Of a stretch of 64,000 nt of DNA, positions 8,048-34,517 are shown in pieces. This DNA comes from a virus (Duplodnaviria > Caudoviricetes). Numbering within the stretch: the first letter of the stretch is position 1; each line of letters opens with the position of its first letter. The notes beneath the pieces are model-generated. The model did no database searches. It was not told the DNA's origin and saw only the letters and a list, made by a program, of their open reading frames with translations. The translations under genes and the position numbers were made by a program. The stretch is from positions 1,557 to 65,556 of IMG/VR virus record IMGVR_UViG_3300014208_000006. The stretch is one strand, 5' to 3'.

Positions 8048-8281
8048 ATGCAGGCAACAATGACCCCAAATCTCGTGAGTGCAGCCCGTAGCCTTCTCGG
8101 TTTATCTCAGGACGATCTCGCCAAACTCTCAGGCGTCAGCCGGGCCTCCATATCGAACTTCGAGCGGTCGGCCAGTGGTCTGATTGCACAGAACCGAAAG
8201 GCCGTGATCTCAAGCCTGGAAGCCGCGGGTATTGAATTCATCGAGGGAGGGGTGCGGCTTAAGCCGAAGGGGAAGAAGTGA
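8048..8281 (+). CDS. XRE-family HTH regulator
   Basis: AARSLLGLSQDDLAKLSGVSRASISNFER..LEAAGIEFI. Confidence 0.85.
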   Translation: MQATMTPNLVSAARSLLGLSQDDLAKLSGVSRASISNFERSASGLIAQNRKAVISSLEAAGIEFIEGGVRLKPKGKK

Positions 8282-8988
8282 AACGTATCCTGCTATTTTC
8301 TGCGCTGATTTCTGTCTGCTTGGCTCAGTCTGGTTCTGTTGCGGAATCCAACGAAAGAATCCGTCTTGATTTTGAGCAAAGGATGCGAGAGCGGGAGCAG
8401 TATCGCAGGGATTCCGAACGAAGGATTGAAGAGATTAAGCAGAGGGAAAAACTCCGCCGAGCGAACGAGCAATCGAGTGCGGCGCGAGAACAGGCACAGC
8501 AGGCGCAGGCTTCCGCTGACGAAGCGAACGTTCGGCTCGAACAGCTTGAATCGCGACTGGATGCGCAGGCGCGTCGCATGAATGAGTCCATTCCGCTTGA
8601 AACCTATCCCGGTGTCCTTGCCCGTCGCCTGCAAGACGGCGGAGTCTCGGCCTCGATCAATGGCTCTGCCATGCGTTTTGATAATCCCTCTGCCTACAAC
8701 CAGTATGTAGCCGGATTGGAGGCTGACCGAAAGCAACGCGCGGCCGAAGACGAACGCCGGCGTGTCGAGTATGAGAATGGCGTTAACGCGGCACGAGACC
8801 GCGCGTTCAAGAAATACCCTGTGTTCGCCGACGACAACAGCCTTGAGCGTCTAGCTCTTGATTCCTACGTCACCCGCTTTCTCAACAACGAGGCGAACAA
8901 ACCATACTTTCAGGATTCAAGCTGGCCGGAGAAAATCGCGGACCAATTCGCCGAAGCTTATCGGATCGGTCCGAATGGGCGGAAATAG
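8278..8988 (+). CDS. Sec-signal protein with coiled coil and a C-terminal scaffold-paralogous domain
   Basis: MKRILLFSALISVCLAQS signal; C-terminal 62 aa match 63320-63505 at 36/62 identities, ungapped. Confidence 0.75.
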   Translation: MKRILLFSALISVCLAQSGSVAESNERIRLDFEQRMREREQYRRDSERRIEEIKQREKLRRANEQSSAAREQAQQAQASADEANVRLEQLESRLDAQARRMNESIPLETYPGVLARRLQDGGVSASINGSAMRFDNPSAYNQYVAGLEADRKQRAAEDERRRVEYENGVNAARDRAFKKYPVFADDNSLERLALDSYVTRFLNNEANKPYFQDSSWPEKIADQFAEAYRIGPNGRK

Positions 8989-19710: not shown

Positions 19711-19748
19711 ACACTACGGTTTCACGGGGTCATTCAGGCGGTTGCATT
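19711..19748 (-). promoter_or_regulatory. Late promoter motif copy C (leaderless)
   Basis: AATGCAACCGCC, TAGTGT at 33-38, ATG 6 nt further. Confidence 0.6.
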
Positions 19749-21571
19749 TAGCCGACGTTCGTGCGCCTGAAGCCGTCGGGTGCGAGATAATGGCTGTCCC
19801 GCTGAAACCGCCTCATGTCGATGGCCTGTGGACCCCCCAGCCGATACTCCGTGCAGGCACCAAGATTGTAGTTCGCGATCGCCGCGCTCATCACATGGTC
19901 ATCGTGCTTGCTCGGAGCCGCCTTGCACTCCCCGCTGTCCGTGATGATGAAGCTTTTGTGCTCGGCGATGATCTCGGGCGAATAGATGGTCAGTTCCTGC
20001 TGCCTGATCTTCGGGGCGAGCTCGTCTATGATCCACTTCTTCGTCAGCTTGTCGGTCATCCACCCGTAGGCGGAAAGCCTCTCCTCCTCGGACACCTGTT
20101 TGCGGCGGTTGACGTGCGCCTCCCGCCTGAAAATGTTGCACCCCAGCTTCTCAAGCGCCTTGACGACGGCCAGACCTGAGTTGTTGACCTCGGGGATGAC
20201 GAGGCAGTTGCCGTAATAGGCTGCCATCGCGGCCACGATCTCAGCCAGGATGTCCGTGTCTTCCCTGGAGTGATGAAGCGCGACGCATGCCGGCTTCTGC
20301 CAGACGCCAGCCTTGTCCGTGTAACCCGCGCGCCAGACCTGCGCGGAATGCCAGTCCGGATCCGCGGTCGTCCCGCCGATTTGCTGGTCCCTCCCTGTGC
20401 AGGTGTCCACGGCGATGAGGTATTTGCAGCCGAACCGCGGCTCCTCCCAGCGAATAACACTTCCACGCTCGTCCGGTATCCATGTCGAAACCCCGCGCCG
20501 GCCTTGCTGGACGAGATTGCCGCACTGGCGGTGGTCGTTCGCCTTGGCGAATCCGAGCATGTCAGCCAGGGCTTCCTCATCGAACCGCATCCGGCTCGAG
20601 GACAGGAACGCGCCCTCCGCGCTGCTCGGGTATTCCTGCCGGAACTTGCCCACGTCGCCCTTGTAGTCGGTGTTGATCTTCTTCCTCCGCCAGTGCAGTT
20701 GCTCGAGGCTGACGCCGTAGAGCTTCTGTTCCGTCACCTCGTCAGGAGTCATCGACTTCCTGAAAACGTGCTTCTGGTCTTCGCTCTCGAAATGCGCCGT
20801 CGCATCCTCGAATTCGAACCACGCGGCGAATACCTTGTGCCAGTCGTTTTCCGCCCACCACGTATCATGGAACCAGCCGGAGGCCCCGTTCGCGGTAGAG
20901 GTTGCAAACCCGAGGGAATGCTTGTGCTGCTTGTAGAACGCGCCAAGCACGGCGGTCGTCGGGTCCTTGCTGCTCGAACTCGGGAAGTAGGCCACTTCGT
21001 CCATGTGCAGGACTTGGACGGTTCCGGAGCGGCCGGCATTCGTGCTGCCGGCGGTCTCCTTCCACCACTTTGACCCGCTGGCCAGCGTGATCTCGTCGGC
21101 CAGGTCGCCGCCCACCGCGAAATTCTTGCCCGGCTCCGAGTCGCCGTAGGGGAACATGTCGCCCTTCGCGTAGCGCCGGAACATCTCGAACACCTTGTCG
21201 CTCGTGCTCTGCACGTCGCCCATGAGCGCCCCGTTGAGATTCGGAAAGCGGCGCATATGAAAATACGCAATGGCCTCGGCGATCGTGCTGGCCCCCTTCT
21301 GCCGGGGCTTGAGGATCATGATGAGGCACGGCTTGCCGGCGATCTGGCAGCGGCGATAGTGCTCAACCACCCGAAGCTGCAGCTTGTTCGGCTTCAAACA
21401 TGGCTGAGGAGTGCCATCGATCCCCTTGAACGTGGCGAAGTTGGCGCACCACATTTCAAAGTCAGAGAACATCAGCCGCGCCAGTTCCTCGGCGGTGATC
21501 TTCTCCATGTCCACCAGGGCAGGATGGGTCTCCCCGGTGTGAAATATCGGATTAACTACATGGGGCTCCAT
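19748..21571 (-). CDS. terL: Terminase large subunit
   Basis: Q motif NKLQ, Walker A KPRQKGAST, Walker B LHMDEVAYF, STANG, nuclease IAVDTCTG..D and KHDDHVMS. Confidence 0.92.
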   Translation of the reverse strand: MEPHVVNPIFHTGETHPALVDMEKITAEELARLMFSDFEMWCANFATFKGIDGTPQPCLKPNKLQLRVVEHYRRCQIAGKPCLIMILKPRQKGASTIAEAIAYFHMRRFPNLNGALMGDVQSTSDKVFEMFRRYAKGDMFPYGDSEPGKNFAVGGDLADEITLASGSKWWKETAGSTNAGRSGTVQVLHMDEVAYFPSSSSKDPTTAVLGAFYKQHKHSLGFATSTANGASGWFHDTWWAENDWHKVFAAWFEFEDATAHFESEDQKHVFRKSMTPDEVTEQKLYGVSLEQLHWRRKKINTDYKGDVGKFRQEYPSSAEGAFLSSSRMRFDEEALADMLGFAKANDHRQCGNLVQQGRRGVSTWIPDERGSVIRWEEPRFGCKYLIAVDTCTGRDQQIGGTTADPDWHSAQVWRAGYTDKAGVWQKPACVALHHSREDTDILAEIVAAMAAYYGNCLVIPEVNNSGLAVVKALEKLGCNIFRREAHVNRRKQVSEEERLSAYGWMTDKLTKKWIIDELAPKIRQQELTIYSPEIIAEHKSFIITDSGECKAAPSKHDDHVMSAAIANYNLGACTEYRLGGPQAIDMRRFQRDSHYLAPDGFRRTNVG

Positions 21572-28477: not shown

Positions 28478-28900
28478 TCAGGAGGTTTGGGCGGGTTCGC
28501 TCGTAACCGCTTGGACTTCGATGGCTTGCGAGTATTTGAGTGCTTCGAGCACTTTGGCGGCAATATCCGGGTTCCGGCCCAGCAATCTGCCGAGGTCGGT
28601 CAGGCTTTGCGTCGCCGATCCGGGCTTGGTCGTGTCCACCTCGATCATCTGGCGAGGCTTGCCGTGGCGATACTCGAGGAGTTTGACGGCGGCGGCGAGT
28701 TGGACGGCGTTATCCGTGCGTTCCTCGTAGATTGGCGAGCCGCCAGGCGTCCGGGACGTGCCTCGGACCACGACTTGGGCCTCAAGTAGCGCCTCGAGCT
28801 TGGCGAGGGCCTTGGCGGCGAGCGGTTCGGACACCACGAGGGCGTCAACGCGGGCAACTACGGTGCTGAGTGCTTCTTTTCCCATGCTCGACATCCCCAC
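28478..28900 (-). CDS. terS: Terminase small subunit (probable)
   Basis: A..L.ALLEA..DN.VQL.AA..LL.Y.HGKPRQ.IEV pattern; heads the late minus-strand unit. Confidence 0.55.
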   Translation of the reverse strand: MGMSSMGKEALSTVVARVDALVVSEPLAAKALAKLEALLEAQVVVRGTSRTPGGSPIYEERTDNAVQLAAAVKLLEYRHGKPRQMIEVDTTKPGSATQSLTDLGRLLGRNPDIAAKVLEALKYSQAIEVQAVTSEPAQTS

Positions 28901-29200
28901 CCTGCGTCTTCGGGCAGGAGCGGGGACAGAATCGGCGGGCGCGTCAGCATGCCCTCCTTGTCTGTTCGCAGTTCTGCCAAGTCAACAATAAATGGAACGT
29001 GAGGCCGGAAGGAAGCGAAGCGGGTTACAAAGCCTGAATTGTGAATAAGCTCGACATGACCTGTAAAAACCTCCTTTAGAATCCTCCGAAAGCAAAGTGT
29101 TGATGAAAGTAACCGGGTCACAACATTTCAACTCATACGTTCTCCGGGGAGGCGGGAGACGAGGGAACGGGGTGATGAAGTGAGCGATGTGGCGACGAAG

Positions 29201-29227
29201 TGAGCGTGTGAGCGTGTGAGCGTGTGA
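29201..29227. repeat. 8-bp tandem repeat
   Basis: (TGAGCGTG)x3 TGA in the divergent intergenic region. Confidence 0.8.
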
Positions 29228-29518
29228 TTCTGCCTCTGGGCGTGACTGGGCGCGGCCTGATCGTGTGGCGCGTGATTCTCGGGGAAAGCTGCGGCGAAAC
29301 GTCGAATATCGAGCGCCAGAGGGTGTTAAAAGTGGTGAATCTGGGCGGAAAGTGAAGATTTCTGGGAATGCGGAAGGATGTGGGGATGTGATGATTGTGA
29401 ACGCTGAATGGCGGTTGTTCGCTGTGCTGCTTATTTCGTGCTTGCAGTATATAAGAACGCGGGGCAGGTTTGTTGTCAGACGGGGCAATCACGCCCGGTC
29501 GAAACAAGGAACGACGAA

Positions 29519-29890: not shown

Positions 29891-29971
29891 ATGTTGTTCC
29901 CCGCTTCTCGGCGCGAGCCGGGCGGCGGTGATCTGCAATCACGCAGAACTCAACTCAACAAGGAGACGACA

Positions 29972-31003
29972 ATGACGACGACGAAACAGGGCAGCGAACA
30001 TCAACGCGACAGGCTTGCCCACGAGTTCACGCGCATCTTGCGGGACGAATGGCTTGGCGCCCACAACTGGGCCGAGATGGTGAAGGCGAACGCGGCGGAG
30101 ACGGAAATCGGCATCTGCCACTCGCATGACTACTGCGACGCGAACATGGCGATGCTCGAAGCCTTCAAGATCGTGCACGGGCGCGAGTGCGAGACGAACG
30201 ATGATGCCGACGCGCTGCTCTGGACGGACGCATGGAACGAGGCCAAGCGCATCTGGCAGGCTGGACCGACGCCCACGCCCACGCCCACAGGCCGCACGGA
30301 TGCCGAGATTGCGACGGTGCGCGAAGCGTGCGCGTATGCGGTCGAGTGCCTGAACGCGCTGGGCTTTGTGGCGACGCACGAGCATCAGGACACGATCAAC
30401 TGGCCGCTGGCGGATGGTCGGCGCAATCTGATGGCCGGCACGGTTGACGGCGTGTGGGGCTATGACGTGGTGGAGTCGCACGGTGATGTGCTGGCGGATG
30501 AGGGGGCCGACAAATACGCCCTGCCCCTGTGCGCAACGGGCCCGATGGTGGCCAAGTGGCTTTACGAGGCGTGGCAGCGGCTGAATGCGGCGGCGGTGAT
30601 GAGCCTTGCCCAGCTTTGCACACAGTATCGCTTCCACGAGACGGACACGGGCGGCGGCTGCACGGCGCTCAAGCAGGAGGGCGAAGTCTTCCATTGGCTG
30701 CTGACGGAGACGGATGACCCGAGCGCGCCGGACGTGGTTGGCGCGCAGTGCTGCCTGTCTCTCTACCGCAACGATCAGGACCACAGTGACGCGCAGGTGA
30801 CGTTCATCTGCCCGGACGTGGAGAGCGCGATGAAGATGGCCGGCTGGTTCGAGGAGTCGCAGTCGAACGCGGGCAACGCCTCGCAGGGCATCGCCATGCA
30901 GGCGGCAAGCAAGCTCGTCGCTTTCGCGAATCGCAACACGCGCATCAACCTGACGGGCGACTTGGCCGAGGCCGTGAGGCTGGCGCGGCTGACGGTTGGC
31001 TGA
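29972..31003 (+). CDS. Early mosaic multi-domain hypothetical protein
   Basis: AAGGAG RBS; CHSHDYCDANM, PT linker, TGGGCTAL modules. Confidence 0.7.
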   Translation: MTTTKQGSEHQRDRLAHEFTRILRDEWLGAHNWAEMVKANAAETEIGICHSHDYCDANMAMLEAFKIVHGRECETNDDADALLWTDAWNEAKRIWQAGPTPTPTPTGRTDAEIATVREACAYAVECLNALGFVATHEHQDTINWPLADGRRNLMAGTVDGVWGYDVVESHGDVLADEGADKYALPLCATGPMVAKWLYEAWQRLNAAAVMSLAQLCTQYRFHETDTGGGCTALKQEGEVFHWLLTETDDPSAPDVVGAQCCLSLYRNDQDHSDAQVTFICPDVESAMKMAGWFEESQSNAGNASQGIAMQAASKLVAFANRNTRINLTGDLAEAVRLARLTVG

Positions 31004-31059
31004 AGTCGAAACGGCCCTCGTGCCGTCGGGCGGATTGGCATGCCGTCCCTGATGAGACT
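31004..31059 (+). ncRNA. Hammerhead ribozyme, type II
   Basis: AGTC-GAAA-CGGC(cctcgt)GCCG-TC|-GGGCGG(attggcatg)CCGTCC-CTGATGA-GACT; predicted cleavage after C31027. Confidence 0.9.
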
Positions 31060-31088
31060 GCCACAACCAACAACAAAGGAAAACGACG

Positions 31089-31625
31089 ATGAAACTGACA
31101 AGCGATGAACTGAAGCAGGCGCGTGAATGGCTGAAAGACTGCCAATGGCGAGACCTTGAGGCCGGAGACGTTGACGACATGCCTGACGAGACCGTTGAAC
31201 GTGGCGTCGCCAAGCACTACGATGGGGGGCTCGCCGAATTCAGGAAGAACTGCTCTCACCGCGCGCAGCCGGTTGCTGCGCATACGCCAGCAATCGAAAT
31301 TTATACCCACGCCCTTGGGGCGTCCGTCATCGAAAGAACGGGCCATTACAGCAAGGTCATCCAAGACTTCCGTTCGCTTGAGGAGGCGAACGCATTTGTT
31401 CTTGGTTATCGAATGGCCGGGCAAACCCGCGCCTGCAACTCGCACGCGGCGCTGGTCGAGGCGCTGGCCCTGCTTGTCTCGTTCGATGACAAACAGGGCA
31501 TGGCCGACCATATCCGCGAACGCTCCGGCAACAACGAGGACGCGCAGACCCCGGAAGAAACAATTTACCTGCACGGCATGTCGGCAGCCCGCGCCGCCCT
31601 CGCGCTCGCCAAGGAGGCCCCATGA
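31089..31625 (+). CDS. Early hypothetical protein
   Basis: AAAGGA RBS; AREWLKDCQW..ERGVAKHYDGG. Confidence 0.7.
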   Translation: MKLTSDELKQAREWLKDCQWRDLEAGDVDDMPDETVERGVAKHYDGGLAEFRKNCSHRAQPVAAHTPAIEIYTHALGASVIERTGHYSKVIQDFRSLEEANAFVLGYRMAGQTRACNSHAALVEALALLVSFDDKQGMADHIRERSGNNEDAQTPEETIYLHGMSAARAALALAKEAP

Positions 31626-31882
31626 GCGCCACCCTCGCCTTCTCCGTCGCATGGGACACCCGGCACGCGCGCGCAACGGCCACCACTCCCATCAACGGCC
31701 AGCACTACCGCATTTCCCGCGAATGGGGGACGGCCTTGGTGCAGTGCCTGAATTCGCGCCTTGCCCAATTCCGGGTGATCGAGCACTCCCCGGCCCCGGG
31801 CTTCGAGGACCTGACGGGCTGGCTCGTTCACCTTAACGCCGACCTGCAGGCGAGTCTGCGGGCCTGCCCTGCCCCGCTGTGA
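31622..31882 (+). CDS. Early hypothetical protein
   Basis: ATGA overlap. Confidence 0.6.
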   Translation: MSATLAFSVAWDTRHARATATTPINGQHYRISREWGTALVQCLNSRLAQFRVIEHSPAPGFEDLTGWLVHLNADLQASLRACPAPL

Positions 31883-31983
31883 GCACCCCGAAGGCCAAGG
31901 CCAAGCGGCTGGGGATCCTCGCACTGGAGGGCTTGTTCCTCGTCGGGCTGGCCCTCTGCGGGCTTCTCATGCTGGCCCTTTGA
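31879..31983 (+). CDS. 34-aa membrane peptide
   Basis: GTGA overlap; STPKAKAKRLGILALEGLFLVGLALCGLLMLAL. Confidence 0.5.
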   Translation: MSTPKAKAKRLGILALEGLFLVGLALCGLLMLAL

Positions 31984-31988
31984 TTCTC

Positions 31989-32052
31989 GTCGAAACCCGG
32001 GCGCCTGTGGCTCGGGTCTGCGGGCAGGTGGCTCCTCCCGCACTGAAGAGAC
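31989..32052 (+). ncRNA. Hammerhead ribozyme, type II
   Basis: GTC-GAAA-CCCGGGC(gcctgtg)GCTCGGG-TC|-TGCGGG(caggtggctcct)CCCGCA-CTGAAGA-GAC; predicted cleavage after C32018. Confidence 0.88.
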
Positions 32053-32083
32053 AAGCCAACTCAACCAACAAGGACATCACCAC

Positions 32084-33436
32084 ATGAATACGACGACAAC
32101 CACCACCACAACGACAACGCTCAAGAAATGGGAAGCCGGTCAGGGACTCGGCCCCCGCATGCTCAAGCAGTTCAACGACGCCATCAACAAGGCTTCCTTC
32201 AACGCGCGCGGCGTCTGCACGCTCACCGGCATCATCGGCAAGCCCGAGACGGAATCAGGCCGGGATTGCGTCATGGTCTCGCTGTTCGGCGGATCCTCGA
32301 ATCCCGCCTACGAGCCCAAGCTGGCGGAAATCCAGGCGAAGCACGGCAGCATCGTGACCGCAGCCAACTACAAGGGGCTGGTCGATGACCTGCTCGCGCT
32401 GGCCTCGTGGCTGCATCATAACCCCATCATCAAGGACGAGCGCGTGACGCAGGAGGCGCATGACGCCAAGGAGGCCAATTACGCGCAGGCGATGGCCGAG
32501 CGTAAGCGCAAGGACGAGGAGCACGATGCGGCCAAGGCCATCATCGCGGGCGAACTGCGGGCGAAATACCCGTGGGCGGTTGGCCGGCGCTCCGGCGAGA
32601 ACCTGAAAACTCTGCTGGGCCAGACCTTCCCCGGGATCGTCTTCTCGGTCCGCTCGGACTCGAACTCCCTGACGGTCTCATGGGAGAATGGCCCGGCTGA
32701 TGGCGAGGTCTCCAATATCGGGGACCAGTTCCGCGCCGGCCGCTTCGACGGCATGACGGACGGCTATGACTACGACAACAGCGCGCGGACGCGGGCTTGG
32801 TCGGAAGTCATGGGAACGGTGCGCTATGTGTCCTACAATCGCGCGGTCGATCGCCAGCCGGTCATTGACGGCCTGAAGGCCAGCATCACCGATTGGGACG
32901 CCGACGGCCATCACTCCGTTTCGCAGGTCGCCTATCGCCTCATCGGCAAGTCCAGCTTCCCGGCTGGCGCGGTCCTGACGGGAGTGGAACGGCTGCCCGG
33001 CGACGGCTGCGGCCAGATGGAAGACTGGTTCAAGATCACCTACACCACCCCCGGGCCCTCTTATTCCGCTCCTGCCCCCGCCCCGGTCACGAACTCCGCC
33101 GGCATCACCGTTTCGCGCAACATCGAGAAAGGCGGCGTCGAGATCCGGTTCCCGAGCAAACCCGAGGCCAGCATGATCGAGCGCGTGAAGTCGCAGGGCT
33201 TCCGCTGGTCACGCTTCTCTGGCTGCTGGTGGGCCAAGGCGACGGACGGCAAGGTTGCCTTCGCCTACAGCCTGGCGGGGCAGGAAGCGCCCAAGAACGG
33301 GCAGGAACAGGCCAATTCCGAGCAGTCCGAGCAGGTTCGGGACCCGGGCGAGGACGCGGCGGACCGTCATTCCGAGGCCATGGGCGCCGAGGAGGTCACG
33401 GAACGCCTCATGGAAATGGACGCCTTCACCCGCTGA
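32084..33436 (+). CDS. Polyvalent-protein-associated (LPD29-like) protein
   Basis: LK..L..TFPG..FSVRS..WENGP..F.GMTDGYDY (LPD29-like) plus C-terminal EIRFPSKP..GFRW domain. Confidence 0.7.
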   Translation: MNTTTTTTTTTTLKKWEAGQGLGPRMLKQFNDAINKASFNARGVCTLTGIIGKPETESGRDCVMVSLFGGSSNPAYEPKLAEIQAKHGSIVTAANYKGLVDDLLALASWLHHNPIIKDERVTQEAHDAKEANYAQAMAERKRKDEEHDAAKAIIAGELRAKYPWAVGRRSGENLKTLLGQTFPGIVFSVRSDSNSLTVSWENGPADGEVSNIGDQFRAGRFDGMTDGYDYDNSARTRAWSEVMGTVRYVSYNRAVDRQPVIDGLKASITDWDADGHHSVSQVAYRLIGKSSFPAGAVLTGVERLPGDGCGQMEDWFKITYTTPGPSYSAPAPAPVTNSAGITVSRNIEKGGVEIRFPSKPEASMIERVKSQGFRWSRFSGCWWAKATDGKVAFAYSLAGQEAPKNGQEQANSEQSEQVRDPGEDAADRHSEAMGAEEVTERLMEMDAFTR

Positions 33437-33438
33437 CA

Positions 33439-33489
33439 GGCCGAAACCCCTTCGGGGGTCTGCTGGTAGCTGCCAGCACTGACGAGGCC
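33439..33489 (+). ncRNA. Hammerhead ribozyme, type II
   Basis: GGCC-GAAA-CCCC(ttcg)GGGG-TC|-TGCTGG(tagctg)CCAGCA-CTGACGA-GGCC; predicted cleavage after C33460. Confidence 0.9.
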
Positions 33490-33527
33490 AGACGACTCGA
33501 ATCCAACAAGAAAGGACGACACCCACC

Positions 33528-34337: not shown

Positions 34338-34370
34338 AAGCCCCGTTGGCCTCGTGCTGGCGGGGCTTTC
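34338..34370. terminator. Bidirectional intrinsic terminator
   Basis: AAAGCCCCG-15nt-CGGGGCTTT between convergent units. Confidence 0.7.
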
Positions 34371-34517
34371 TGCTGCCCGTAAAGCAAGAGCCCCCGGACA
34401 CTGCAAGCAGCACCCGAGGGCTCCAACAAGGAGGGCGACGAAACCCTCACTAAGCGGTCGGAAGTGTCATAGCCTGGCGCGGCATGGTCAAGCGCGGATC
34501 ACTATGTTCATTGCGGC

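Follow-up and report, generated by a model that had tools for sequence, protein, structure and literature searches.

A probable type II hammerhead ribozyme between two cistrons of a plus-strand phage operon

The plus-strand operon and its three hammerhead motifs

The window analysed here is a stretch of 64,000 nucleotides, comprising bases 1557-65556 of a 65,556-bp IMG/VR virus record that has direct terminal repeats and is rated complete; according to this record the phage genome is complete at 65.6 kb. A gene map guided by third-position GC content (GC3) shows that minus-strand genes predominate, and that they are interrupted by a plus-strand island of about 5 kb, at roughly 29.1-34.4 kb, which is divergent from the minus-strand genes ending at 28900 and convergent with those from 34518. 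In gene order this island encodes proteins of 160 and 343 aa, followed by hammerhead motif HH1, proteins of 178, 86 and 34 aa, HH2, a protein of 450 aa, HH3, and proteins of 132 and 129 aa. Most of the genes that flank the hammerheads have no assigned function. The main features, all on the plus strand, are as follows.

29972-31003, plus strand: 343-aa gene, function unknown, with Shine-Dalgarno (SD) sequence AAGGAG; its TGA stop abuts HH1
31064-31088, plus strand: leader downstream of HH1 with SD AAAGGA before ATG 31089; contains the motif CAACAA(A)GGA
31089-31983, plus strand: gene block between HH1 and HH2, encoding 178 aa (31089-31625), 86 aa (31622-31882) and a 34-aa hydrophobic peptide (31879-31983)
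31988-32060, plus strand: HH2, with core CUGAAGA, 8-bp stem III, 6-bp stem I, stem II GUC/GAC and pseudoknot UGGCU:AGCCA
32084-33436, plus strand: 450-aa gene between HH2 and HH3, with an LPD29 domain and a C-terminal motif as in the giant virion protein
33439-33497, plus strand: HH3, with core CUGACGA, UUCG-capped stem III, stem II GGCC/GGCC and a short loop I
34340-34374, plus strand: terminator-like GC-rich hairpin of 11 bp followed by UUUCUGCU, read from the sequence and not called by a simple terminator scan

The plus-strand operon probably ends at the hairpin 34340-34374, opposite the convergent genes of the minus strand. An earlier note on this DNA had placed a hammerhead directly behind a 343-aa gene, and that gene length holds when translation starts at ATG 29972 rather than at the first ATG (29891): an AAGGAG lies 8 nt 5' of 29972, and a public protein collection has an identical 343-aa sequence on record. 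The N-terminal domain of this protein matches phrog_21393.

The three hammerheads differ in sequence yet keep their helices, and all of them lie on the plus strand, bracketing blocks of genes. Their packing is tight, with 0, 5 and 2 nt between the upstream stop codon and the start of HH1, HH2 and HH3, respectively, and 29, 31 and 38 nt between the hammerhead end and the next start codon. Each hammerhead is separated from the next start by an A/C-rich leader carrying CAACAA(A)GGA; in the 25 nt that follow stem II of HH1 (31060-31084), A and C make up 88% of the bases. The leader motif CAACAA(A)GGA(G) occurs at 29956, 31071, 32066, 33504 and 34424 on the plus strand, before operon genes with or without a hammerhead; these are five of its plus-strand matches, grouped within 29.9-34.5 kb. 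Comparable leaders, rich in A and C and containing AAGGA, are found downstream of many IMG/VR type II hammerheads. The 81-nt spacer before ATG 29972 contains no fourth hammerhead: it has neither GAAA nor CUGANGA, and no model match.

LPD29, found in the 450-aa protein, is a 'polyvalent protein' domain. Residues 352-388 of this protein form a 37-aa motif, containing the words KP...GF.W, that recurs at residues 1148-1184 of the giant virion protein (8989-17688 on the minus strand; 3147 aa in full) with an E-value of 3e-6, and both proteins match PHROGs 19458 and 6744. The operon thus holds a free-standing copy of a domain from the presumed injected polyvalent protein.

Two further observations concern the surroundings of the operon. 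The divergent intergenic region (28901-29407) contains 3.5 tandem copies of GTGAGCGT at 29200-29227 (plus strand), with more GTGAGCG words upstream of them (region 29173-29227, plus strand) and many GTGA/GTGAT words up to 29400. These repeats separate the hammerhead operon from the minus-strand genes that diverge from it, and the region 29173-29227 may be an operator or a promoter control of the operon. Elsewhere, a tRNA-Met (CAT; 58.4 bits) at 17694-17768 on the minus strand lies on the same strand within the 3147-aa open reading frame (8989-18432, minus strand). This tRNA is exactly 75 nt long (25 codons), in frame and without a stop codon, and reading through it yields a P/A/S-rich linker. 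GC3 is coding-like beside the tRNA in the same frame (0.78 and 0.80), and 0.42 inside it. One possibility is a tRNA lying inside coding sequence, another that a tRNA has joined two genes in frame.

Anatomy and statistical support of HH1

We propose, with a probability of about 0.85, that positions 31004-31063 form a self-cleaving ribozyme, a hammerhead of type II, in the 85 nt that separate the 343-aa gene from the 178-aa gene of this plus-strand phage operon. Its elements, as read from the sequence, are listed here.

31004-31007, plus strand: stem II 5' strand AGUC, pairing with GACU; C31007 is C11.1
31008-31011, plus strand: core G12 A13 A14 and A15.1 (GAAA), aligned to the conserved GAAA of the Rfam family RF02276 and of our covariance model R1
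31011-31026, plus strand: stem III hairpin ACGGC/GCCGU, 5 bp, loop CCUCGU
31027-31028, plus strand: predicted scissile bond C17/G1.1, triplet GUC, placed by the hammerhead consensus
31028-31048, plus strand: stem I hairpin GGGCGG/CCGUCC, 6 bp with one G-U, 9-nt loop I AUUGGCAUG
31036-31040, plus strand: pseudoknot, loop I strand UGGCA, pairing with 31059-31063
31049-31055, plus strand: core C3 U4 G5 A6 U7 G8 A9 (CUGAUGA), aligning to the RF02276 and R1 cores
31056-31059, plus strand: stem II 3' strand GACU; G31056 is G10.1
31059-31063, plus strand: pseudoknot, 3'-tail strand UGCCA, pairing with loop I UGGCA

The order of elements is thus stem II 5' strand, GAAA, stem III hairpin, H17, stem I hairpin, CUGAUGA and stem II 3' strand. 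This is the type II permutation, with stems I and III each closed by a loop and stem II left open. The three helices surround a core with the G10.1-C11.1 pair (G31056-C31007) closing stem II. H17 is C31027, a non-G as the class requires, and C occupies this position in 155 of 161 viral type II hammerheads.

The earlier note had described most of these elements, and the hammerhead reading holds: core, three type II stems, pseudoknot, covariance-model matches and two sister copies all agree. The sequence bears out the TGA stop (31001-31003) directly before AGTC at 31004, the perfect 4-bp stem II AGTC/GACT (31004-07 with 31056-59) and the 6-bp stem I GGGCGG/CCGTCC (31028-33 with 31043-48). The CUGAUGA core at 31049-55 is canonical, as had been stated, and no core position deviates. 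The stem III pairing and the GTC triplet are likewise present, and the stem amounts to 5 bp when the A15.1-U16.1 pair (A31011 with U31026) is counted, its strands being A31011-C31015 and G31022-T31026. The cut predicted there after C31027 falls at the correct H17 position by the hammerhead consensus. What that first description lacked is the 5-bp pseudoknot, a hallmark of the class, which extends the element to 31063. U31059 is common to stem II and the pseudoknot, leaving four of the five pseudoknot pairs free of conflict.

At the Rfam gathering thresholds the window yields no hammerhead, a single tRNA being the only report, and the hammerheads surface only with E-value thresholds. RF02276 (Hammerhead_II) then matches 31004-31066 over the full model (positions 1-66) with 31.4 bits, as compared with a cut-off of 37 bits. 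The E-value of this match is 8e-5 locally, 0.02 for the whole window against 4227 families, and 4.9e-6 for the genome with this family alone. HH2 and HH3 score 30 bits each, so that all three copies fall under the Rfam cut-off. The 37 bits are a curation threshold and not a defining feature of type II.

As an independent test, we derived a covariance model (R1) from 12 type II hammerheads that could be aligned without gaps, all of them on other IMG/VR contigs and none from the window. With filters off, R1 scored HH1 at 47.3 bits (E ~5e-11), HH2 at 42.9 and HH3 at 36.7, and the next-best match in the window at 12.3 bits (E 0.35). Among 152 matches in about 1 Mb of viral loci, HH1 ranks about mid-table by this model. 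We also searched with a descriptor consisting of CUGANGA, GAAA, G10.1-C11.1, a stem II of at least 3 bp and stems I and III of at least 4 bp. It found three sites in the window, all on the plus strand, and 0 in 300 dinucleotide-preserving shuffles, both strands searched. A chance origin is therefore excluded.

Nested folding of HH1, by itself or with 106 nt of context, gives a minimum free energy (MFE) structure other than the hammerhead fold, which lies at -17.6 kcal/mol as compared with -18.8 kcal/mol for the MFE; the z-score in context is 0.45. For a pseudoknotted three-way junction such folding is uninformative, and we gave it no weight in either direction. Stem III does form in the MFE fold. 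This fold uses the pseudoknot helix, which excludes stem I in a nested structure. The word GGUUGGC (30994-31000, plus strand), with which the upstream coding sequence ends, repeats the UUGGC of loop I and pairs with the pseudoknot tail GCCA..AACC in the nested MFE folds; this pairing could compete with the pseudoknot, or may be due to chance.

The hammerhead class in viral genomes and the relatives of the phage

In the published type II consensus, loop I pairs with the 3' tail adjoining stem II (Perreault et al. 2011, PMC3088659), and most members can form at least 4 such loop I/tail pairs (PMC3088659). We surveyed this pseudoknot in 161 descriptor matches, 158 of them viral and three from this window. 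In 65 of the 161, loop I and the tail can form at least 5 consecutive Watson-Crick pairs, where about 7 are expected when tails are swapped among the matches. HH1 has the commonest geometry of these pseudoknotted viral type II hammerheads: stem I is 6 bp long in 39 of the 65, and the pseudoknot starts 3-4 nt after G10.1 in 62 of the 65 and exactly 3 nt after it, as in HH1, in 29. The pseudoknot holds stems I and II parallel, and its disruption lowers the cleavage rate by 20- to >100-fold at 0.5 mM Mg2+ (PMC3088659). HH1 and HH2 differ here by a compensatory change from A-U to U-A (UGGCA:UGCCA as compared with UGGCU:AGCCA). In HH3, which has a short loop I, no pseudoknot is evident and no 5-bp loop I/tail run was found.

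In a model-based alignment (A4) of 146 distinct viral hammerhead sequences, 97.8% of cells pair, as compared with 69.1% in shuffles. Covariation of the nested stems is partly circular, because both the descriptor and the model demand these stems. The pseudoknot helix is a less biased test, because the model cannot represent a pseudoknot and the descriptor did not require it; this helix is paired in 90.4% of cases in A4, with compensatory changes at 5 of 5 pairs, and it covaries in the seed alignment as well. A MAFFT alignment of the copies shifted HH1 by a few columns, and A4 was used in its place for counting pairs.

The position of HH1 between a stop codon and a start codon is also common in the class. 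We compared 157 viral type II hammerheads with random sites on the same strand, counting only open reading frames of 40 codons or more. Such a frame ended within the 30 nt upstream of 68% of the hammerheads, as opposed to 19% of random sites; for an SD and start within 70 nt downstream the figures were 78% and 9%, and for both together 54% and 1.4%. The median spacings among the 157 were 2 nt to the stop and 24.5 nt to the start (0 and 29 nt for HH1). The sequence context thus suggests that type II hammerheads form an integral part of translation-initiation regions. Long arrays of them occur in some viral contigs: IMGVR_UViG_3300008255_000242 (L090) has 8 model matches within 3.2 kb (8158-11325, plus strand), and long same-strand type II arrays were also found in L040 and L094 (6-7 each), as well as in L058 and L088.

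Searches through the flanking proteins found no orthologous copy of HH1 at the same site. The 343/370-aa protein has distant relatives by its N-terminal domain in 26 IMG/VR records, and in two of these, type II hammerheads lie 0.85-1.7 kb upstream on the same strand, at a site that is not orthologous. No hammerhead was found in the two of these 26 records with a near full-length homologue (46% identity; loci L009 and L010), nor in a small IMG/VR fragment. For the 450-aa, 178-aa and 86-aa proteins we found no relatives in viral contigs. Genome and metagenome contigs gave nothing for the 343-aa protein, a protein atlas gave no usable match, and a DNA search of a phage collection returned one trivial 48-nt match.

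Among the relatives found, the nearest is a prophage carried by a 205-kb contig from a metagenome-assembled genome of Lacunisphaera sp. (Verrucomicrobiota; L153, CBDFNB010000029.1, region 8653-20274). Its DnaC/IstB-like protein is 72% identical to that of the phage, its replication initiator 37-55% identical over two matched segments, and its homologue of the 86-aa operon protein 52% identical and in the corresponding orientation. The host of the phage is probably a Verrucomicrobiota relative of Lacunisphaera. A hammerhead scan of a 20.8-kb stretch of this prophage found no hammerhead, and the ~10 kb on the operon side contain no other Rfam ribozyme, so that the element is dispensable in the lineage. 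Taken together with the hammerhead-free records of near full-length homologues, this indicates from sequence comparison that hammerheads come and go within this operon type. Such turnover agrees with the published observation that the genes flanked by type II hammerheads are not constant among phages (PMC3088659). The prophage can help to name the host and offers a natural 'no-ribozyme' comparison.

These data bear on whether HH1 might be a relic or look-alike, hammerhead-shaped but with cleavage lost or too slow to matter, and with no role. Such a relic would fit the Rfam score below the gathering cut-off and a related prophage that manages without a hammerhead; it would also fit the double use of U31059 in stem II and the pseudoknot, and small changes in stem II length or pseudoknot register can cut the rate by orders of magnitude (PMC3088659). 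We nevertheless regard it as improbable, given that all core positions are intact, that helices and pseudoknot are complete, that the fold is shared by three copies of different sequence within the operon, and that the geometry is the commonest in the class, with chance excluded by the shuffles. The element is a genuine and probably active type II hammerhead.

Possible processing of the operon mRNA and comparison with known systems

Hammerhead ribozymes cleave 3' of H17 by an internal transesterification that leaves a 2',3'-cyclic phosphate and a 5'-OH. If the operon is transcribed as one RNA, HH1 would cut between C31027 and G31028, and HH2 and HH3 are predicted to cut after C32018 and C33460, respectively. 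This would release internal RNAs of ~991 nt (31028-32018) and ~1442 nt (32019-33460), plus two end pieces. Owing to the type II permutation, the RNA of the 343-aa cistron would keep a 24-nt 3' UTR after its stop codon, ending in the stem III hairpin. The downstream RNA would begin with a 5'-OH at G31028 and the stem I hairpin, followed by the A/C-rich leader with its SD, in a 61-nt 5' UTR whose last part would be unstructured. Pseudoknotted type II hammerheads are known to cleave fast at physiological Mg2+ (PMC3088659).

The purpose that we favour, at about even odds, is that cleavage uncouples the stability and translation of neighbouring cistrons, making the hammerheads a natural 'insulator' or punctuation of a polycistronic mRNA. 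We favour it because, in E. coli, stem-loops at the 5' terminus stabilise mRNAs and RNase E acts preferentially on RNAs with a 5' monophosphate (review, PMC3997798). A 5'-OH can also expose an RNA to decay, as with the 5'-OH product of the glmS ribozyme, which RNase J1 degrades (PMC3997798), and the sign of the effect on expression would therefore depend on the RNases of the host.

A more novel reading, which we consider a long shot, takes the type II topology and its placement as the mechanism itself: cleavage would report upstream translation or be gated by it, and both products would end protectively in a hairpin. To our knowledge, only in the type II topology do both cleavage products of a hammerhead end in a hairpin (stem III on the new 3' end and stem I on the new 5' end). 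A terminating ribosome would melt the ribozyme, because the 5' strand of stem II abuts the upstream stop codon. If this were true, hammerheads would be translation-sensing mRNA punctuation, and not constitutive cutters.

We consider it very unlikely that the hammerhead-bounded segments (31028-32018 and 32019-33460) are joined by a host RtcB-type ligase into circular or re-ligated RNAs, or that they mark exchangeable gene cassettes. Same-sense hammerhead pairs do bracket gene blocks, the product ends are by established chemistry RtcB substrates, the genes between hammerheads vary among phages (PMC3088659, and the viral loci studied here), and eukaryotes have hammerhead-bounded circular RNAs (PMC5680766). 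However, the phage genome has no RtcB gene, and the tight packing of stop, hammerhead, SD and start is explained more simply by mRNA processing. An ordinary pair of intercistronic hairpins (a terminator, an attenuator, or an RNase III or protein-binding site) with chance hammerhead-like words is hardly credible: the spacer does hold two GC-rich hairpins, but neither is followed by a U-tract, the terminator scan was negative, the 11 core nucleotides, G10.1-C11.1 and the pseudoknot are all in register, and 300 shuffles gave 0 such sites.

The locus is a clean and compact test case, with three intact hammerheads of different sequence that would cut a ~5-kb operon into predictable pieces. Since all three copies lie below the Rfam annotation cut-off, routine pipelines will undercount such elements, which a model built from viral examples recovers easily.

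A functional analogy exists with synthetic insulators of the RiboJ type, reportedly introduced by Lou et al. 2012, in which a hammerhead just upstream of the ribosome-binding site is said to trim the upstream RNA context. RiboJ is an artificial construct, a type III (sTRSV) hammerhead to which a hairpin has been added. The likeness is in function only, in that a 5' hairpin and a defined leader are left behind; HH1, in contrast, is natural, type II and intercistronic, and its insulating effect would follow by analogy.

Within Rfam, HH1 matches RF02276 over its full length, sharing every conserved position of the core and the consensus pseudoknot words UGG...GCCA. It differs from the family in its score (31.4 as compared with the 37-bit cut-off), in a shorter stem III and in a loop I unlike the seed consensus; because the score lies under the gathering cut-off, routine annotation misses it.

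Type II hammerheads are also known from bacterial genomes. In Desulfovibrio vulgaris, three of them near phage-like genes cleave in vivo with the expected ends (cyPhyRNA-seq, PMC8782182). They resemble the present ones in class and in occurring as several copies per genome beside hypothetical or phage genes, but they lie at three separate loci, whereas the present three share a single operon in the genome of a free phage. What phage and prophage hammerheads do biologically is still listed as an open question (De la Pena et al. 2017, PMC6155905).

The closest parallel is the triple array at the ardA prophage of Agrobacterium tumefaciens (PMC3088659), which shares with our locus the type II permutation and the loop I/3'-tail pseudoknot, as well as three same-sense copies within ~2.5 kb that bracket one gene and a short block of a phage-derived operon. 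In both cases the bracketed genes look like establishment or counter-defence functions, being ardA in A. tumefaciens and the LPD29 'polyvalent-protein' domain gene here. The genes themselves are different, and so is the host lineage, the nearest relative here being a Verrucomicrobiota prophage. The A. tumefaciens copies cleave in vitro and in E. coli, whereas cleavage by HH1 is a prediction from sequence. Multiple type II hammerheads that flank prophage genes are on record, and triple arrays among them cut within ~2-kb transcripts both in vitro and in E. coli (PMC3088659); the arrays that we found in the viral contigs L090, L040 and L094 are far longer than the triple arrays of that 2011 description. 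Both the architecture and the prophage arrangement were thus already described in 2011 (PMC3088659), and HH1 is a further example and an ordinary member of its class.
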